From the NCBI GenBank assembly GCA_964436005.1, contig CAYTBK010000005.1, forward strand, positions 3,041 through 67,040: DNA of 64,000 nucleotides, in the 5' to 3' direction. Origin of the DNA: an uncultured Acidobacteriota bacterium. GTDB taxonomy: Bacteria > Acidobacteriota > JAAYUB01. Each line of letters opens with the position of its first letter. Positions within the stretch are counted from its first letter, which is position 1. This document shows positions 4,448 through 62,050 of this stretch, in pieces. A model generated the notes under the pieces. It saw nothing but the letters and a program-made list of their open reading frames with translations. It did not search any database and was not told the DNA's origin. Both the position numbers and the translations under genes were made by a program.

Positions 4448-4726
4448 ATGCGCGATGATCGCGGCCGTGAACCTGTCATGTACGTGGTTGTTGCGCGGCT
4501 CCCGAGGGAAGAAACGATCCGGGAAACCCAGCCCCGGATCCAAAGCCGCTCGCCGTCCGCGAGCCCTTTGAAGACGCCGGATTTCGGGCCTACGCCTGGA
4601 ACCCGCTCCTTCTCCCTGCCGGGAGGGTCTCCCCAGACCCTCCCTTTCCTCCTCGTTTTCCGGCTTTCCCTGATCTTTGACAATCCGGTCTTCCCGCTCC
4701 GATTTTACTTGTTAACCTTGCTGCCT

Positions 4727-5152
4727 ATGCTGTGCTATCTCGACTCCAAGCTCCAGGACGATCCCGACATTGAGGACGTCACGGTGGAACCCCTCAAATG
4801 CTCCTGCTCCTATTGCGGCGCGGAACTGCAAGACGACGACTGCGCTTCGTGGAAAGAGACGCCCGACGCGGAAGGCGTTTGCCCCGAATGCGGCCATCTA
4901 TCCAGTTATTGCTGGAATGACCTTGACGGCCGCGCAGACTGGTTCAATTGGGCGAACATCTCCACCGACCGTCACGGTTGTCTTTACTTCAACGTGAGCG
5001 TCGCCGATCCCCGCGGCTCGGATCTCACCTTCATCCTCTACGTGGACCGCAACGATCAGGCGTACAAGGTGGTTCTGCCCGACGGCGGCCTGTCCTACCT
5101 CAAACCCAAGGACGAGCTGAAGGAGCGCGTGCTCGCCTACGTCTACAGTTGA
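4727..5152 (+). CDS. hypothetical zinc-ribbon protein
   Basis: CSCSYCG...CPECGH motif pair; no SD before 4727, so the start is uncertain (the ORF opens at 4448). Confidence 0.4.
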   Translation: MLCYLDSKLQDDPDIEDVTVEPLKCSCSYCGAELQDDDCASWKETPDAEGVCPECGHLSSYCWNDLDGRADWFNWANISTDRHGCLYFNVSVADPRGSDLTFILYVDRNDQAYKVVLPDGGLSYLKPKDELKERVLAYVYS

Positions 5153-29691: not shown

Positions 29692-30858
29692 CTATTTGGG
29701 GGGCGTTGTGCCGAGGGCGGCCCGGAAGAGTTTCACGTAACTTTCCACCACTGATTCCCAGGAGTATCGATCCCGCGCCCGGCGTTCCGCCTTTTCTTTC
29801 AGCTCGGCGTGGGCCTCGGCCCGGTCTTCGACTTGCTGGAGCAGGCGGAGCGCCTCGTCCAGGTCCGACGAGCGGAAAAGGATGCCGGCATCCCCGACGA
29901 CCTCCCGGTTTTCCGGGGTGTCCAGGGAGAAGATGACGTTGCCCACCGCCATGTTCTCCACCAGCGCCGGGTGTGTGCCGCCCACCTCGGTGGCGTGGAT
30001 GTAGCAGAAGGCGTTGGAAACGAGTTCGCGGTACCCGTCCCCGTAGATGGCCCCGGGGAACAGGACGCGAGGATCGGGCGTGGCTTTCAGGCTGGCGATG
30101 TACTCCCGGGAATAGGGGGCATCGCCGAGAATCACCAGTCGTTTGCCCGTCCGGAGGCCGGCGAACAGGCGAATGACGAGGTGGGCGTTGTTTTCCGGTT
30201 CCAGGCGGCTCACGTACAGGTAGTATTCGCCGGGCTTCAGGCCGAGTGCGGCCAGCGTTTCGCCGGGCGGGGCGACGACCGGCTGGGCGCCATACGGTAT
30301 CATCACGGATTCCTTGCGATAGCGTGTCTGGTAGTACTGCCGGATGTGCTCGGCGTCGGTGACCACCGCGGTCGGCATGAAGCAGGACAACCTTTCGGAA
30401 AGCCGGTACCAGGCACGGCCGATGACGTTCCATTTTTTCCGGTTCTTCTCCAGCCCGTCGACGTTGAGGATTACCCTGGTGCCCAGGAGGCGGGGCAGAA
30501 AGCAGAAGACGGCGTTGGCGGCGTTGCAGGCCAGGATGATGTCGTAGCGGCTCCCCAGCGAGTGTAGCATGGAAAGAAACGTGTGGGAGACGGTGTCGAA
30601 GTACTTGTGCCGCAGGGCGGGCAAGGTGATCAGCCTGACTCCCTGGAACAGCCGGAGGCCCGGGACCGCGTAATGCTTTCGGCAGTATACGGTTACCTGA
30701 TGGCCAGACACGGCCAGGCGCGTCGAGAGTTCCTGGGCGAAGGTTTCGAAGCCGCCGTAATTGGCCGGGATGCCTCGCGTGCCCATGACGGCGATGCGAA
30801 GCGCGCGGCCTTCGGTTCCGGCGGACGAGGCGGATGGGGGACGGTTTTCTTTCAGCAT
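29692..30858 (-). CDS. glycosyltransferase family 4 (DUF1972 N-domain + Glycos_transf_1)
   Basis: RIAVMGTRGIPANYGGFETF N-terminal domain; EGFGL-type C-terminal motifs; start chosen at the second ATG. Confidence 0.8.
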   Translation of the reverse strand: MLKENRPPSASSAGTEGRALRIAVMGTRGIPANYGGFETFAQELSTRLAVSGHQVTVYCRKHYAVPGLRLFQGVRLITLPALRHKYFDTVSHTFLSMLHSLGSRYDIILACNAANAVFCFLPRLLGTRVILNVDGLEKNRKKWNVIGRAWYRLSERLSCFMPTAVVTDAEHIRQYYQTRYRKESVMIPYGAQPVVAPPGETLAALGLKPGEYYLYVSRLEPENNAHLVIRLFAGLRTGKRLVILGDAPYSREYIASLKATPDPRVLFPGAIYGDGYRELVSNAFCYIHATEVGGTHPALVENMAVGNVIFSLDTPENREVVGDAGILFRSSDLDEALRLLQQVEDRAEAHAELKEKAERRARDRYSWESVVESYVKLFRAALGTTPPK

Positions 30859-37663: not shown

Positions 37664-40600
37664 ATGCGAAAGGGAAGTGCGGGGGGGCGGCTGGGGGCCG
37701 CTGCCGTTTGGACACTGTTGGTCGGGTGCCTGCTCGCGGTCCATTCCGTTCCGCTGCGAGCCGGGTACTACACGTATTCCTGGGGCAGCAATGCCTACGG
37801 CCAGCTGGGAGATCCGGCCGCCGGGACGGTGCAGCTCTCCCCCTACTTCATTTCCGCCCTGGGGGACAGCTATCTGACCGTGCACGCCGGCAACGGCTTT
37901 TCCGTTGCGCTCCTGTCCGAAGGGATGGTGAAGGCCTGGGGGAAAAACAACCAGGGCCAACTGGGGAACGGGACCATGGGCACCGACATGCCCTACCCGG
38001 TGGCCGTCTCGGGCCTGACTGACGTGAAGGCGCTTTCGGCAGGAGACTCCCATGTGCTCGCGGTCCGTTTCGACCGGACGGTCTGGACCTGGGGCGCCAA
38101 CACGAGCGGCCAACTGGGCGACGGGACCAGCGCCAGCCGGGATGTCCCCTCCATGGTCGGGCAACTGGCGGGCGTGGTGGCTGTCGCTGCCGGCGGCGGG
38201 CATTCCCTGGCCCTCCGGGACGACGGAACGGTCTGGGCCTGGGGCGGAAACAGCCAGGGGCAACTGGGGATTGGCGACACCAGGAACCGGTGGACGCCCG
38301 TTCAGGTTCCGGGTCTGACCGGCGTGGCTGTCATCGCCTGCGGAAAGGACCACTCGCTCGCCCTGAAATGCGACGGCACGGTCTGGGCCTGGGGAAGCAA
38401 TGACAAGGGCCAGCTCGGGATCGGTTCTTCGGCGTCGTATGTCGCTTCGCCTGCGCAGGTCAGGACGCTGGGCGCGGACGAGGCCAGCAAGGCGATGGCC
38501 CTGGCCGCGGGGGCCAGGCACTCGGTGGCCGTGGCGGCGGACGGCACGGCCTGGGCCTGGGGTTGGAACGCCTACGGCCAGTTGGGCAACGGGGGGACCA
38601 GCGACGCCAGTTCCCCGGTCCGCTGCAAGTTGGCGGACGGAGGCGAGACCGTGGCCGTGGCCGGCGGATCCGGTCATACCCTGGCGATCCGGACCAACAC
38701 GGGCGAAGCCAACTTCAACATCGTCTGGGCCTGGGGGCGGAACCGGGAAGGGCAGCTCGGGGTCAGTTCGCTCCAGGACAAGATCGACCCGGTTTCCACG
38801 GGCCTCGGGCAGGTGTCGAGCCTGTCCGCAGGGTACAACCACTCTCTGGCCCAGGCCAGCATGGTCGCCACGGCCCCTGCCATCCTCTTCCCGCCGCTGG
38901 GTGGCGACGTTCTGCGGGGAAGCTCGGCCACGCTGACCGTGGGCGCCTCGGGCAAGCCGAGGCTGCAGTTCCAGTGGTACCGGGGCCCCCAGTACTGCAC
39001 GACCGATCCGGTCGCGGGAGCAGTCTACCCGACGTTCGTCACGCCTCCCGTCACGGCGGAGGTTTCCTACTGGGTGAAAATCCAGTGCGAGGACGGATAC
39101 GTGTGCAGCACGGCGGCGGTCCTCACGCCGGTGGAGGGCCCCACCATCACCCGGCAGCCGAATTCCCCCGCCGGCTGTTTCGGGCAGAGCGTGTCGATTT
39201 CCCTGTCGGCGTCGGGGACGCGTCCCCTGAAATACCATTGGTACGAGGGGGAAAGGGGAGACACCAGCAAGCCGGTGGGTTCCAACAGCGAGGCCTATTC
39301 GCTCGTCATCGAGGAGACGAAGAAATTCTGGGTCAGGGTGACCAACGACTACGGGCAGGCGGACAGCGAGACGGCGACCGTGACCCTGCGGCAGGCGGTG
39401 GGAATCCTCTCGCATCCCTCCCCCACTTCCGTCTATGCCGGGGAGAGCGCCAGCCTGGTCGTCGTGCCCGTCGGCGACGGCGTGACCGGCCAGTGGTACC
39501 GCGGCGCTTCCGGCGACACTTCCGCTCCCGTCGGTACCGGCTTGACGCTGAACACCGGCCCACTGACGGCTTCCGCCGACTTCTGGGCCCGCCTGACCAA
39601 CCCATGCGGGGTGGCCGACAGCCGGGCGGCGAGAGTGACCGTGCTCACGGGCGGTCCGGTCGCGCCCGGCGATGTCCGGGCCGTCAACACGTCGTCCACG
39701 GCGGTTCTCCTGACCTGGTTCAGCGGAAACGCGGCTACGGCCCAGATCGAAATCCAGCGGAAAACCGGTGCGGGCGGGACGTTCGCCCACGTCGCCACCG
39801 TCCGCGGCGACCTGACTTCCTGGAGCGAGGACGGCCTGGTTTCCAACGAGACGTACTGCTACCGCCTCCGGGCCGTCCATGTCGGGGTCGCCTCGGCCTG
39901 GTCCAACGAGGCGTGCGCCTGGTTGCAGACCTGCGCGGTCCCGCAGGCGAAAACCGCCGGCGCCCAGGTGCTCGGCGCCAGTTCGGCCGTCCTGCGAGGT
40001 TCGGTGGTTTCGACGCAATGCGGAGCGACGGCCTGGTTCGAGTACGGGCCGACTTTGGAGTACGGTTCCTTCAGCAACCGGATCAGCGTCGGACAGGGAC
40101 CCGGGGAAACCCGGTTCTCCACCCAGCTCGACGGCCTGCAGAACGGTTCGGTCTACCATTTCCGGGCCGCGGCCCAGAATGAAGCCGGCACCGTCTACGG
40201 CGAGGACATGGTGCTGGAAATCCATGTGGGCACCTGGGTGGTCGGGACGCTGGACGACCCGGCCGCCGGGAAGACGGGCGACGCGCTCTCCCTGCGCGAG
40301 GCCCTCGCCCTGGCCGAAGCCGCGGCCGGTTCCGACCAGCAGATCGTCACCTTCGACCAGAGCCTGCCGGCTCCCCGCATCGTGCGGCTGAACGGCCCGC
40401 TGCCTCCCTTCCAGCGGGGGAATGTCACGCTGGAGGGCACCATGCCCGGCAGCAACGGCGGGCCCGGCACCATTCTCGTCACCTGGGCCGACGGGGCGAA
40501 CGTCAACCGGGAGAACGCTTTCTTCTCCATCCTCTCCCCCGGCAACGTTTTGGCCGACCTGACCATCGGCGGGAGCAACGGCGACGGCATCCGGATCCTG

Positions 40601-47210: not shown

Positions 47211-47240
47211 CCGTAGGCGCCTTCCGCCGGAAGGCGCACC
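47211..47240 (+). repeat. REP-like element (GTAG head + 9-bp perfect palindrome)
   Basis: ccGTAG-gcgccttcc-gccg-ggaaggcgc immediately after a stop codon; second copy at 62022. Confidence 0.6.
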
Positions 47241-47824
47241 CGCAGGCAGGATCTCGGGCGCATCGTGCGCCGCCCCGGAGTGTGGCGGCGAGTCGGCGAG
47301 CCGCCGCTTTCGGCACGGTCCATGGGCGAAAGCGGGCCCGTACCGACCGGACATCCTCATGCATTTCGTCGTGGCCTTCGTTCGGCTCGGAGGCATATTG
47401 CAGAACCCGGTTTCCGGTGCGGCACGGGCGCCGGTTTCGTTCTGCTTCCGCAGGCGAGGGACGTGTGCGGAAAGCGGCAGCTCGGGGCTCGCTGCCGCAC
47501 TCCTGACCTTCGGCTTCGGCACGGCAGCATGGAACGAGAATGCACCGGGCCGCACCCGGCGCCTTTCTCTTTGCCCTTGGGTGCGCCTTGCAGCGCAAGT
47601 CGCCTTCGCCCGGCGCTTGCGCCCCCCCGTGCCCCCGTGGGCCCGATGAGAGAATCCGCCAACCGCGGCCGGGAAGCCTGTTTCTTTTCTTGATCTTTGC
47701 CGGGCCGTCGGCAGGTCTTGCGGGAAGCCCATCCCTTGCCGGAATGCCGGGGCGGGCCGTGCAGCCCCCGATCAGTTTCCCGCAGGAAAACGATAACCAT
47801 AGCCCGACAATCCAGTTACCAAGA

Positions 47825-47961
47825 TCTTTCCCGTAGGGATCAATTTCCATGGGGTATCCGAGCCAATCGAATCCGAACGTCTGCAGGGTATTCATGCCCT
47901 CCGGGCAAGGGCACCGGGGAACGAATCCGGCGGCTATGGACATGTATGCCCTCCGGGCAAC
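47825..47961. repeat. composite dispersed repeat, copy A
   Basis: Units tttcccgtagggatcaat and 2x attcatgccctccgggcaa; ~85% identical to the reverse complement of 57625-57842. Confidence 0.6.
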
Positions 47962-47963
47962 CG

Positions 47964-48107
47964 AACAGCCCCGCTGTTTTTTCTCTGTCGGGACCCGATC
48001 AGTGCCCTTCCCACGCCATCGGCGTGGGATACCTCAGCCCGGGGTTGGCGTTTCGCCAACCCCGGGAAAGAGCGTCACACAACCGTGAATCCCTGAAGGG
48101 GATTCAC
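47964..48107. repeat. cluster of four hairpins, three of them perfect palindromes, in a convergent intergenic region
   Basis: aacagc-ccc-gctgtt+T-run (47964-47982); cccacgcc/ggcgtggg (48010-48028); 13-bp cccggggttggcg/cgccaaccccggg (48038-48066); gtgaatccc/gggattcac (48085-48107). Confidence 0.5.
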
Positions 48108-48213
48108 GGGCGTACGGAAAGGATGACGACGGCAGCTTCTGCCAAAATCCAGGTGCGCCTTGCATCGCCAGGCGGAAGTTCTCTTTAATTTCTGGTCGTC
48201 GATGGTTTGGACG

Positions 48214-56498: not shown

Positions 56499-57311
56499 AT
56501 GTCAATGAGTGTACTGAACAATCTGGCCAGTCTGCAGGCCCAGAACGAGCTCACGGTCAATGCCATGGGGATGCAGAAGACCCTGAACCGGCTCTCGACC
56601 GGCAAGCGCCTGAACACGGGCGCCGACGACGCCGCCGGCCTGGCCATCGCCGACGGCTTGCTGGGGCAGATCAACGCCCTGAGCCAGGCCAGCCGGAACG
56701 CCTCCGACGGCGTCGGCTACCTGCAGGTCGCCGACGGCGCCATGAGCCAGATCACCAACCTGCTTCACCGCGCCATCACCCTGGCCGAGCAGGCAGCCAC
56801 GTCCACCAACGCCGATTCCTGCGTGGTCATCGACTCGGAGTACCAGCAGATCAAGTCGGAGATCGACCGGATCTACACCAACACCAACTACAACGGCACC
56901 GACATCTTCGCCACCACCCTGTCGGTCTTCGTCGGCGACACCACCAGCACGAGCGTCATCGTGGCCTCCACCACCTCCTGGTCGCTCAGCTCGACGAGCC
57001 TGAACCTGGGGAACCTGACTTCCACTGGCTTCGCCACCAACGAGCTGGCCGTTCTCCGCGACGCCCTGGACTCGGTGGCCGGCTACCGCGGCGAAGCGGG
57101 CGCCGTCATCAACCGACTGCGCAGCGCCCAGAACGTCATTTTGACCCAGGTGCAGAACCTCACCACGGCCCAGTCGCAGATCCGCGACGCCAACATGGCC
57201 GAGGAGGTCTCCAACCTGACCAAGTTCCAGATCCTGGCGCAGTCCGGCATGGCCGCCCTGGCCCAGGCCAACTCCAACGCCCAGAACGTGCTGCAGCTCC
57301 TGCGGGGCTGA
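56499..57311 (+). CDS. fliC: flagellin (short, D0/D1-only, 270 aa)
   Basis: SD gggagg; N-terminal LSTGKRLNTGADDAAGLAIAD and C-terminal AQANSNAQNVLQLLRG flagellin signatures. Confidence 0.85.
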   Translation: MSMSVLNNLASLQAQNELTVNAMGMQKTLNRLSTGKRLNTGADDAAGLAIADGLLGQINALSQASRNASDGVGYLQVADGAMSQITNLLHRAITLAEQAATSTNADSCVVIDSEYQQIKSEIDRIYTNTNYNGTDIFATTLSVFVGDTTSTSVIVASTTSWSLSSTSLNLGNLTSTGFATNELAVLRDALDSVAGYRGEAGAVINRLRSAQNVILTQVQNLTTAQSQIRDANMAEEVSNLTKFQILAQSGMAALAQANSNAQNVLQLLRG

Positions 57312-57396
57312 GGCCGCCAGGCGGCTTGAATTTCAACCTGCTTCGGCAGGGTTCTTTTTCCGAACGATTCACGTTTGTCACCCTCCCACCGCAAAA

Positions 57397-57437
57397 GCCG
57401 GGCCCGCCTCTTCCAGGCGCGCCCGGCCGTTTTTTTC
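57397..57437 (+). terminator. intrinsic terminator after the flagellin gene
   Basis: GC-rich stem gccgggc...gcccggc followed by TTTTTTT. Confidence 0.6.
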
Positions 57438-57624
57438 GGCGCCCCTTCCGGGTTCGGGCCCGTCTTCCCGGCGCCCTTTCCGGGACGCGGGATCTCGGCC
57501 TTCCCGGCGCCGCATGCGCGAGCATTCCCGTCCTGGGGTGACGCCGCAACCGCCGCATCGCCGACGCTGGCGGCGTGCGTAGCGCACTGCCGATTCTCAT
57601 CAGGCAAATCATCCGTAGCCGTCC

Positions 57625-57842
57625 GTTTGCCCGGAGGGCATCCATATCCATAGCCGCCGGTTCTGTTCCCTGAGCCCCTTGCCCGGAGGGCATGAATATC
57701 CGTCGAAGTTGCGGCCGTTCAGGCCGGAATTGACAGGGATCCTTCTCGGAAAAGCGCAGTTCGCCCAGTGATATTGATTCCCTACGGGAAACCCCGAGGC
57801 GGATGTTTCGCCTGGCTATGGTCATGGATTCCCTACGGGAAA
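57625..57842. repeat. composite dispersed repeat, copy B (inverted relative to copy A)
   Basis: 2x ttgcccggagggcat units and 2x gattccctacgggaaa units as internal ~50-bp tandem repeats. Confidence 0.6.
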
Positions 57843-58127
57843 ACGACTCTCCCATCGACGGTCGTCTATTTTTTCGGGGCGGCCGGGGCCGTCGGCGGCC
57901 GCTTCCCGCGGGCCCCCGATCTGCTCGGAATCGGCGAAAATCCCTTCCCGGCCGGAACGGCCGGCCGAGAGTAGCCGGGCGGCGCCCGGCCCGCGGGGCG
58001 GGCCTCGCCGGGAAAGGCGTGCCACCTCGGTTGTGGCGCCCGGGAGGGGCGCCGGGATCATGTTCTTCGGAAATTTTCCTTTCCAAACGTTATGAGAGTA
58101 ACACTCGTTTGCCAAGGAGGATTTCCC

Positions 58128-58574
58128 ATGCCGTCCACGCTCGTCAGCCTGCATGTCCATCTCGTTTTCAGCACCAAGGATCGTCGCCCATCGATTCAGC
58201 CTTTCTGGAGAGAACGGTTGCACGCCTCTCTCGGCGGGGTGGTCCGCCGGTTGAAAGCGGTCCCGGAAGCCGTCGGCGGGGTGGAAGACCACGTTCATGT
58301 CCTGGCCAGCCTGCGCGCTGTCCATCAATTGTCGGATTGTGTTCGCGACCTGAAGCAGGCGTCTTCTCGTTGGGTGCACGAAAGCCTGCGACTCGACAAT
58401 TTTGCCTGGCAGGAAGGGTATGGCGCCTTTTCGGTCGGCGCAGGCCACTGCAACGCCCTGAAGGATTACATCGACGAACAACAACAGCACCATCATTCCA
58501 ATACATTCCAATCGGAATACATTCGGTTGCTGCAGCAGGAAGGCGTGACGTATGACGAGAGGTACCTGTGGTAG
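58128..58574 (+). CDS. tnpA: IS200/IS605-family Y1 (HUH) transposase, RAYT-like (no tnpB partner)
   Basis: SD aaggagg; LHVHLVFSTKDRRP and HUH motif EDHVHVLAS; catalytic Tyr region WQEGYGAF; stop codon overlaps a GTAG followed by a GC hairpin. Confidence 0.8.
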   Translation: MPSTLVSLHVHLVFSTKDRRPSIQPFWRERLHASLGGVVRRLKAVPEAVGGVEDHVHVLASLRAVHQLSDCVRDLKQASSRWVHESLRLDNFAWQEGYGAFSVGAGHCNALKDYIDEQQQHHHSNTFQSEYIRLLQQEGVTYDERYLW

Positions 58575-58785
58575 TTTTCCCGGCGCCCCTTCCGGGCGCT
58601 TTTCCGTTATTCTCTCCGCTTCACCGGCGGGGGTCCCGCCTTCGGCGGGCCGCCCGCCGGCTATTGTCCCGCCGGCCCGCCGGGCCGGAAGGCGAACCTA
58701 CGCGGCTCCGGCGCCCGGATTTTCTTCCCCTCGTTTGCACGGCGGAGTATAATAAACGATTATTTTGTCGGCGAGGGGGCAGGCC

Positions 58786-60392
<1,607 letters not shown>

Positions 60393-60396
<4 letters not shown>

Positions 60397-62021: not shown

Positions 62022-62050
62022 CGTAGGCGCCTTTCGCCGAAAGGCGCACC
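62022..62050 (+). repeat. REP-like element, second copy
   Basis: ccGTAG-gcgcctttc-gccg-gaaaggcgc; compensatory c->t/g->a change relative to the 47211 copy keeps the stem perfect. Confidence 0.6.

Follow-up and report, generated by a model that had tools for sequence, protein, structure and literature searches.

A solitary Y1 transposase gene between inverted hairpin arms in an acidobacterial genome: a probable REPtron-like cassette

Is a single transposase gene among GC-rich hairpins an insertion sequence (IS), a transposase domesticated by its host, or something between the two? The question is raised by a Y1 transposase gene at 58128-58574 on the plus strand of a 64,000-nt stretch of DNA (hereafter the window) from an uncultured Acidobacteriota bacterium (contig CAYTBK010000005.1). 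The pairing of RAYTs (REP-associated tyrosine transposases, where REP stands for repetitive extragenic palindrome) with the REPINs they mobilise is the standard example of a host that has taken a bacterial transposase into its service. An earlier sequence-only reading had taken the locus for such a REPtron, with a domesticated RAYT-like enzyme maintaining the hairpins around it, rather than for a mobile IS200. We consider it fairly probable that the locus is a REPtron-like cassette around a Y1 enzyme of subclass 1.2, which is low in copy number, moves slowly and stands between an insertion sequence and a domesticated RAYT.

The open reading frame (ORF) is intact and has 148 codons, and Y1 is the only domain of its 148-aa product, an HUH transposase (Pfam PF01797 Y1_Tnp, 77.2 bits, E 1.5e-21, cutoff 23, profile positions 3-121 of 121). 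The two histidine motifs (HVHLV and HVHVL) and the C-terminal tyrosine that had been noticed before were all found in place by alignment with IS608 TnpA. The first motif, LHVHLVF (H9-V-H11), aligned with the first beta strand of IS608 TnpA (YHIVW), and the catalytic HUH motif was H55-V-H57 in DHVHVL, for which the aligned IS608 residues are H64 and H66. The catalytic tyrosine was Y114 in KDYIDEQ, the counterpart of Y127 in KQYIENQ of IS608, and Q118 aligned with the metal-binding glutamine Q131. Among 58 homologues D54, H55, H57, W94, Q95, Y114, Q118, H121 and H122 were invariant, and so were E130, Y131 and L135. The enzyme has the complete IS608-type active site, with HUH motif, tyrosine and glutamine. 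An AlphaFold (AF2) model made from the 58 homologues (predicted local distance difference test 83) had the TnpA proteins of ISDra2, IS608 and IS200 as its nearest structures (E 5e-8 to 6e-6), and E. coli TnpA-REP came only thirtieth in the ranking. The ratio of non-synonymous to synonymous substitution was 0.22 against a 72%-identical homologue (L091), indicating purifying selection on the gene.

The surroundings of the gene were compared among the loci of 80 relatives (43-61% identity) from Verrucomicrobiota, Acidobacteriota, Planctomycetota and other groups; the best Y1 match among GTDB representatives was 61% identical. In a motif-agnostic search, in which 250 nt upstream of each gene was set against 200 nt downstream, about 60 of the 80 relatives had their gene enclosed by inverted repeats 20-100 nt long, far above shuffled controls. 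The repeats had the form of a composite arm, in which a small hairpin A (e.g. GGCCC-gga-GGGCC) is followed by a spacer of about 10 nt, the trinucleotide TAG and a hairpin B with a stem that begins CC, e.g. CCGGTGGC-gcaa-GCCACCGG. Often a third hairpin, C, lay directly beside the ORF on both sides, as in L084. Hairpins with a TAG foot were counted 105 times within 300 nt of the genes, compared to 8-32 times for nine control trinucleotides. Hairpin A, which had not been used in the selection of sequences, was 89% paired, and five of its six pairs changed on both sides.

A covariance model of the arm, named R1, was built from 21 arms of relatives and applied with a threshold of E <= 1e-3. Matches were obtained in 62 of 82 loci; a plus-strand arm upstream was present in 39 loci, ending at a median of 52 nt before the ATG, and a minus-strand arm downstream in 43 loci, starting at a median of 49 nt after the stop codon, with both arms in 31 loci. 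This layout of inverted composite arms is the conserved feature that marks the family across Acidobacteriota, Verrucomicrobiota and Planctomycetota.

R1 holds no sequence from the window, and when it was scored over all 64 kb the best matches were the two flanks of the gene, in the expected orientations, and one solo arm; the weaker matches after these three were the two C hairpins. The upstream composite arm is at 57940-57993 (+; R1 28 bits, E 2e-5) and consists of hairpin A, CCGGCCG-gaa-CGGCCGG, at 57948-57964 (+), a spacer, the TAG foot at 57972-57974 (+) and hairpin B, CCGGGC-ggc-GCCCGG, at 57975-57989 (+), so that the GTAG foot and hairpin B together occupy 57971-57989. The downstream composite arm is inverted and extends over 58624-58696 (-), with the R1 match at 58638-58696 (23.4 bits, E 3e-4). 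It contains hairpin B', with a 17-bp stem, at 58624-58660 (-), the TAG foot, seen as CTA at 58661-58663 when the plus strand is read, and hairpin A', CCGGCCC-gcc-GGGCCGG, at 58672-58688 (-). The order of the cassette is A-B-C-gene-C'-B'-A'. The base before TAG is G upstream (GTAG) and A downstream (ATAG), and it varies in relatives (T, G or A). The claim that the gene is bordered by hairpins instead of IS ends is borne out, as the flanking arms are inverted both in the window and in the 31 two-arm loci and are not the same-strand subterminal hairpins of the IS200 type.

Over 1.3 kb a contig from Logan (L081, run SRR10083294) differed from the window only by a cluster of about 12 substitutions in upstream hairpin B (window 57966-58004, L081 326-364). 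Hairpin B forms a perfect 14-bp stem in this contig and is split into two small hairpins in the window, a difference that could come from strain variation, from template switching in the hairpin or from an assembly artefact.

The unit to which the sequence-only reading had drawn attention as REP-like is a different one, the C-type hairpin. We searched the whole window for CCCGGCGCCCCTTCCGGG with up to two mismatches and obtained four matches against 0.09 expected, at 57435-57452, 57467-57484 and 58579-58596 on the plus strand and at 58039-58056 on the minus strand, all of them within 1.2 kb of the gene and with no match elsewhere in the 64 kb. Related units on both sides of the gene had thus been seen correctly, although those upstream end at 57520 and not at 57600, and the inverted copy at 58039-58056 had been overlooked. 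In a 22-nt form the unit makes an inverted pair around the gene that is 95% complementary: the inner hairpin C at 58036-58057 (-), 70 nt before the ATG, and the inner hairpin C', TCCCGGCGCCCCTTCCGGGCGC, at 58578-58599 (+), which lies 3 nt past the stop codon and is also terminator-like. Hairpins homologous to C were present in L084 and L091. Further C-type sequence consists of three direct units with 32-nt spacing at 57437-57520 (+), namely 57437-57452, 57469-57484 and a partial unit at 57503-57520, and of a palindrome, TCCGG-cgc-CCGGA, at 58707-58719, which contains the C-type core CGGCGCCC and is followed by TTTT. All six C-type motifs sit within 57435-58723, a block of which these direct units and this palindrome form the left and right edges. 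The C-type unit is confined to this block, and the elements conserved in the family are instead the TAG-footed arms at 57940-57993 and 58638-58696.

The stop codon had also been described as embedded in GTAG and followed by a hairpin. The sequence is as described, with TGG-TAG at 58569-58574 and GGCGCC(C)-cttcc-(G)GGCGC at 58582-58600, but the GTAG merely results from a tryptophan codon plus the TAG stop. As a REP foot it was rejected, since other members of the family use TGA or TAA as their stop and it is hairpin B that carries the conserved foot. A hairpin with a TAG foot was also noticed at 29694 (-), TAG-GAAGGGCGCCC-cgca-GGGCGCCCCTC, and its stem includes the GGCGCCCC core of the C-type motif. 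No known RNA family was recognised in the flanks. Rfam was run on the window with gathering thresholds and on 57250-58850 with E values up to 5, and gave only two tRNAs and sub-threshold noise.

Arms were also found without a gene. In the relatives there were 16 doublets of a plus and a minus arm, 164-261 nt long, with no gene between the arms, and one locus (L005) had three near-identical 215-nt copies within 6.4 kb. In the window such a paired-arm element of about 222 nt lies at 57624-57845 (+), in line with these sizes. Its left end has the hairpin GCCC-gga-GGGC, 11 nt and TAGCC, its right end has GGCTA, 10 nt and the hairpin TCCC-tac-GGGA, and the two ends pair over 32 nt with 84% complementarity (z = -5.0 for the DNA fold). 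A second gene-less copy, inverted and 10 kb away, is at 47776-47971 (-) and adjoins the solo composite arm at 48003-48070 (+; R1 27 bits, E 3.8e-5). The solo arm has the hairpin CCCACGCC-atc-GGCGTGGG, then a CAG foot and then a 13-bp hairpin, and is followed by a C-type hairpin at 48085-48110; no Y1 remnant was found near it. A related acidobacterial contig (L090) had two arms at yet another site. With the same inverted arms around the homologues of most relatives, and with these gene-less pairs, the organisation that had been called REPtron-like is upheld.

The two doublets (57624-57701 and 47886-47969) carry two GCCC-GGA-GGGC hairpins with GGA in the loop. The first copy is directly downstream of the flagellin gene, and its GGA loops resemble CsrA/FliW-type binding sites; Rfam gave no match for this doublet. 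We prefer to read the 222-nt doublet as a putative derivative of the transposase arms rather than as a CsrA-type small RNA, because its ends match the arm layout of the family. A palindrome with a GTAG foot, GTAGGCGCCTT(C/T)CGCCG(G/A)AAGGCGCACC, was observed at 47213-47240 and 62023-62050 in the window, each just past the end of a gene, and in L088 at 4615-4642 and 4967-4988, the second of these without GTAG. It represents a REP-like family of its own, with no sequence relationship to the arms around the Y1 gene.

The history of the locus could be approached with a close relative (L088), in which the CTP synthase is 93% identical to that of the window. In L088 the flagellin gene is followed by 187 nt and then by pyrG, kdsA and a lactamase gene, collinear with the window at 89-93% nucleotide identity, and there was no Y1 gene and no R1 match. 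A block of about 1289 nt at 57435-58723, which contains the cassette, the adjacent doublet and all the C-type motifs, is present in the window and absent from L088. The 1.29-kb block is a presence/absence polymorphism between close relatives, because L088 passes from flagellin to pyrG without the gene or its arms. The junction is clean and falls inside the T-run of the flagellin terminator, with GGCCG-T5-CTTC in L088 and GGCCG-T7-CGGCGCC...CCCGGA-T4-CTTC in the window. Clean excision is a known ability of IS200/IS605 enzymes, and by analogy the clean junction may be the product of an excision of this type. In L091 the cassette is homologous to that of the window (76% over 654 nt) along a stretch that starts with hairpin C, takes in the gene and finishes with A'. 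The homology stops at about 58689, and no pyrG was seen downstream of the gene, where the contig continues for 470 nt.

The gene occurs once in the 64 kb. The identical protein was found on 3 contigs with the same neighbours, a single context on record. Over the 64 kb and these contigs the count agrees with the sequence-only reading, which had called for a count in the whole genome. One relative (P0012) was present on 7 contigs, all in one context, and paralogues in the same genome were 58% and 84% identical, with no pair in the set above 90%. The description as solitary also stood, as there is no tnpB partner at the locus, where the neighbours are flagellin (56502-57311) and the CTP synthase gene pyrG (58786-60396), followed by kdsA. 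Neither flagellin nor pyrG was beside the gene in any of the 80 relatives. A partial Y1-like stretch lies near an intact gene in L042 (2415-2561), where it is a C-terminal fragment 440 nt upstream, and in L021 (4139-4369); these may be remnants of earlier copies.

The class that the sequence-only reading had given the enzyme was not supported. In the profile comparison that it had proposed, the protein passed the NCBIfam IS200 equivalog NF033573 by a small margin (60.8 bits, cutoff 55) and failed NF047646, the model of REP-associated tyrosine transposases (21.2 bits, cutoff 80). The name RAYT, in the sense of a canonical member of that family, could therefore not be kept, as the tyrosine motif is also Y-x3-Q and not Y-x3-NP. 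According to Quentin et al., 2018, TnpA-Y1 proteins of subclass 1.2 have a median length of 148 aa, the motifs DH[IV]H, WQ and Y-x3-Q-x2-HH and a conserved C-terminal tail; they are low-copy with divergent paralogues, lack IS200 ends and have been reported mainly from Cyanobacteria and Bacteroidetes. With 148 aa, DHVH, AWQ, YIDEQQQHH and a conserved C-terminal tail, the window protein fits the IS200-proximal subclass 1.2, an assignment made by the published motifs and length and not by the hidden Markov models of the subclass. The three motifs were found in 76 of 81 relatives. Bertels et al., 2017 (PMC5581495) described a 'RAYT-like IS200 Group 3' without duplicates and with abundant flanking 16-mers, and speculated that the RAYT-like IS200 group is a link between IS200 and RAYT; we infer that subclass 1.2 is equivalent to this group. 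The family is large, with 9205 clusters at 50% identity (E <= 1e-3). Many representatives of about 270-300 aa (P0241-P0244, P0246-P0248, P0254 and others) have two tandem Y1 domains of the family in one polypeptide, possibly as single-chain versions of the obligate TnpA dimer.

The locus shares features with several known systems. Length, motifs, tail, low copy number, divergent paralogues and the lack of IS200-type ends are those of subclass 1.2, whereas the window gene and its relatives in Acidobacteriota, Verrucomicrobiota and Planctomycetota sit in inverted hairpin arms with gene-less derivatives. With RAYTs and REPtrons (E. coli TnpA-REP, PDB 4ER8; the REPIN-RAYT systems of Pseudomonas) it has in common a single low-copy Y1 gene, inverted palindromic flanks, a conserved foot ending in TAG and gene-less inverted doublets that resemble REPINs. 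However, in addition to the profile result and the tyrosine motif, the structure of the protein is closer to IS608, each arm is a composite of two or three hairpins (55-100 nt) in place of a single REP, and the block is polymorphic between close relatives. The RAYT foot is GT[AG]G, and here TAG is the common part with a variable preceding base. Dispersed arms in the 64 kb amount to two gene-less doublets plus a solo arm; in relatives, dispersed copies do occur. IS200/IS605 TnpA proteins (IS608, ISDra2, IS200) have the same fold, HUH motif, tyrosine on the C-terminal helix and glutamine four residues later, along with hairpin DNA beside the gene and a score above the NCBI IS200 cutoff; unlike them, the window locus has inverted ends, no tnpB, no near-identical copies in the 64 kb or in the set of relatives, an extra HH motif and the conserved tail. 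In the TIRYTs and TIRtrons of Di Nocera et al., 2013 (PMC3733652) Y1 genes are likewise flanked by long inverted repeats, some of them self-complementary, with moderately abundant solo, dimeric or clustered copies. TIRYTs belong mostly to subclass 2.1, with about 238 aa, a C-terminal helix-turn-helix and GGGGWSAS in the repeats (Quentin et al., 2018), unlike the 148-aa window protein with its Y1 domain only, and GGGG[AT][CG]A[CG] was not seen when the window arms were read by eye. RAYTs and REPtrons have been described before, the PVC group included. The conserved arm architecture of subclass 1.2 with its gene-less derivatives appears to be undescribed, as no account of it was found in the literature searched.

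As to the expression of the gene, a ribosome-binding site, AAGGAGG, is at 58114-58120 (+) in a leader of about 70 nt (58058-58127) that is conserved with L091 in the leader alignment. In 57200-58900 a scan for sigma-70 promoters gave no hit. A conserved TATAAT (58747-58752) precedes pyrG and lies about 25 nt beyond the right edge of the 1.29-kb block (regions compared: window 58730-58760, L088 1335-1365), and the block may take the place of the -35 region in the pyrG promoter or provide it. The neighbouring CTP synthase is 84% identical to proteins named Acidobacteriota. Elsewhere in the window six tandem repeats of about 150 nt at 37779-38770 encode units of the WG.N..GQLG type, which indicates a gene with an RCC1-like beta-propeller repeat.

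Several observations weigh against a REPtron-like cassette that is still moving. Subclass 1.2 was scored 'REP: no' by Quentin et al., 2018, and the activity of the transposase is a prediction from its sequence. The C-type motif is confined to the block, and no repeat family of demonstrable abundance came to light in this genome; the sole whole-collection scan, made with the 22-mer TCCCGGCGCCCCTYCCGGGCGC in metagenomes of a collection without the source organism, gave two chance matches, both in one unrelated GC-rich coding sequence. The window arms are diverged, with different hairpins B and B' and with A and A' only about 72% complementary, and the upstream flank folds no better than shuffled sequences (z = -1.4). 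For hairpin B the pairing statistics, like the invariant TAG of alignment A5, are circular: TAG with a perfect stem was the very criterion by which these sequences had been chosen, and the covariation of hairpin B was not used as independent evidence. Finally, with 1289 nt the block exceeds the cassette (about 756 nt). For this reason it may have arisen in a single event or in several nested ones, or the L088 lineage may have lost it by a clean deletion.

The nearest alternative is a fully domesticated RAYT, immobile and vertically inherited, the sole role of which is the upkeep or mobilisation of dispersed REPs or REPINs for the host. The single copy in the window, the one context on record, the divergent paralogues, the purifying selection, the inverted flanks and the gene-less doublets all agree with it, as does Group 3 of Bertels et al., 2017, with its abundant flanking 16-mers and no duplicates. 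We nevertheless regard this as unlikely. The block is absent from a relative as close as L088, the L091 contig shows no pyrG over the 470 nt after its gene, none of the 80 relatives shows synteny, and the protein fails the RAYT model, has no Y-x3-NP and stands in a genome without a demonstrated abundant REP family. An ordinary mobile copy of IS200/IS605 without tnpB, with the hairpins as its left and right ends, seems more improbable still. The NF033573 score, the fold of IS608 and ISDra2 TnpA and the polymorphism with a junction beside a T-run are what such a copy would give. The left- and right-end hairpins of IS200/IS605 elements lie on the same strand, however, and those of the window are inverted; near-identical copies were found neither in the 64 kb nor in the set of relatives, the Y-x3-Q-x2-HH signature is that of a subclass published as low-copy and non-IS, and the polymorphic block is composite and about 1.3 kb long compared to about 700 bp for an IS. 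That the hairpins have nothing to do with the gene, being GC-rich terminators or regulatory stems in chance symmetry, has very little to commend it, although C' is terminator-like, GC-rich DNA folds readily and the upstream flank is unremarkable in its folding. It is already largely refuted by R1, which was trained on other genomes and finds both arms in the right orientation, and by L088, which lacks arms and gene jointly; the excess of the motif over expectation and the same layout at fixed distances in dozens of unrelated genomes point the same way.

If the REPtron-like cassette works as IS608 TnpA and E. coli TnpA-REP do, a TnpA dimer would bind the hairpins of the arms wherever the DNA is single-stranded, as on the lagging-strand template, and the bases of the TAG foot would position the cleavage. 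A 5'-phosphotyrosine link through Y114 and the rejoining of strands would follow, and the outcome would be excision and reinsertion of segments bounded by arms. Likely substrates would be the gene-less arm pairs of 200-260 nt, acted on in trans, and probably also, at low frequency, the cassette with the gene.

A broader proposal can be offered tentatively, as a possibility that falls somewhat short of probable. Subclass 1.2 would be a third REPIN/RAYT-like partnership, separate from those known, in which a Y-x3-Q enzyme goes together with composite TAG-footed arms of two or three hairpins and with gene-less pairs of about 200-260 nt. It would be widespread in Acidobacteriota, Verrucomicrobiota and Planctomycetota and would still be able to move or precisely excise its own cassette, as a surviving halfway stage between an insertion sequence and a transposase that has been domesticated. 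Genes of this kind are annotated inconsistently, as 'IS200/IS605 family transposase' or as 'RayT', and the covariance model approach could be used to annotate their cognate repeats. How IS200-like enzymes became RAYTs is an open question, for which this locus and its relatives give a concrete architecture on the IS200 side. With defined arms, a conserved TAG foot, gene-less derivatives and a natural pair of filled and empty sites, this architecture makes the intermediate state testable.

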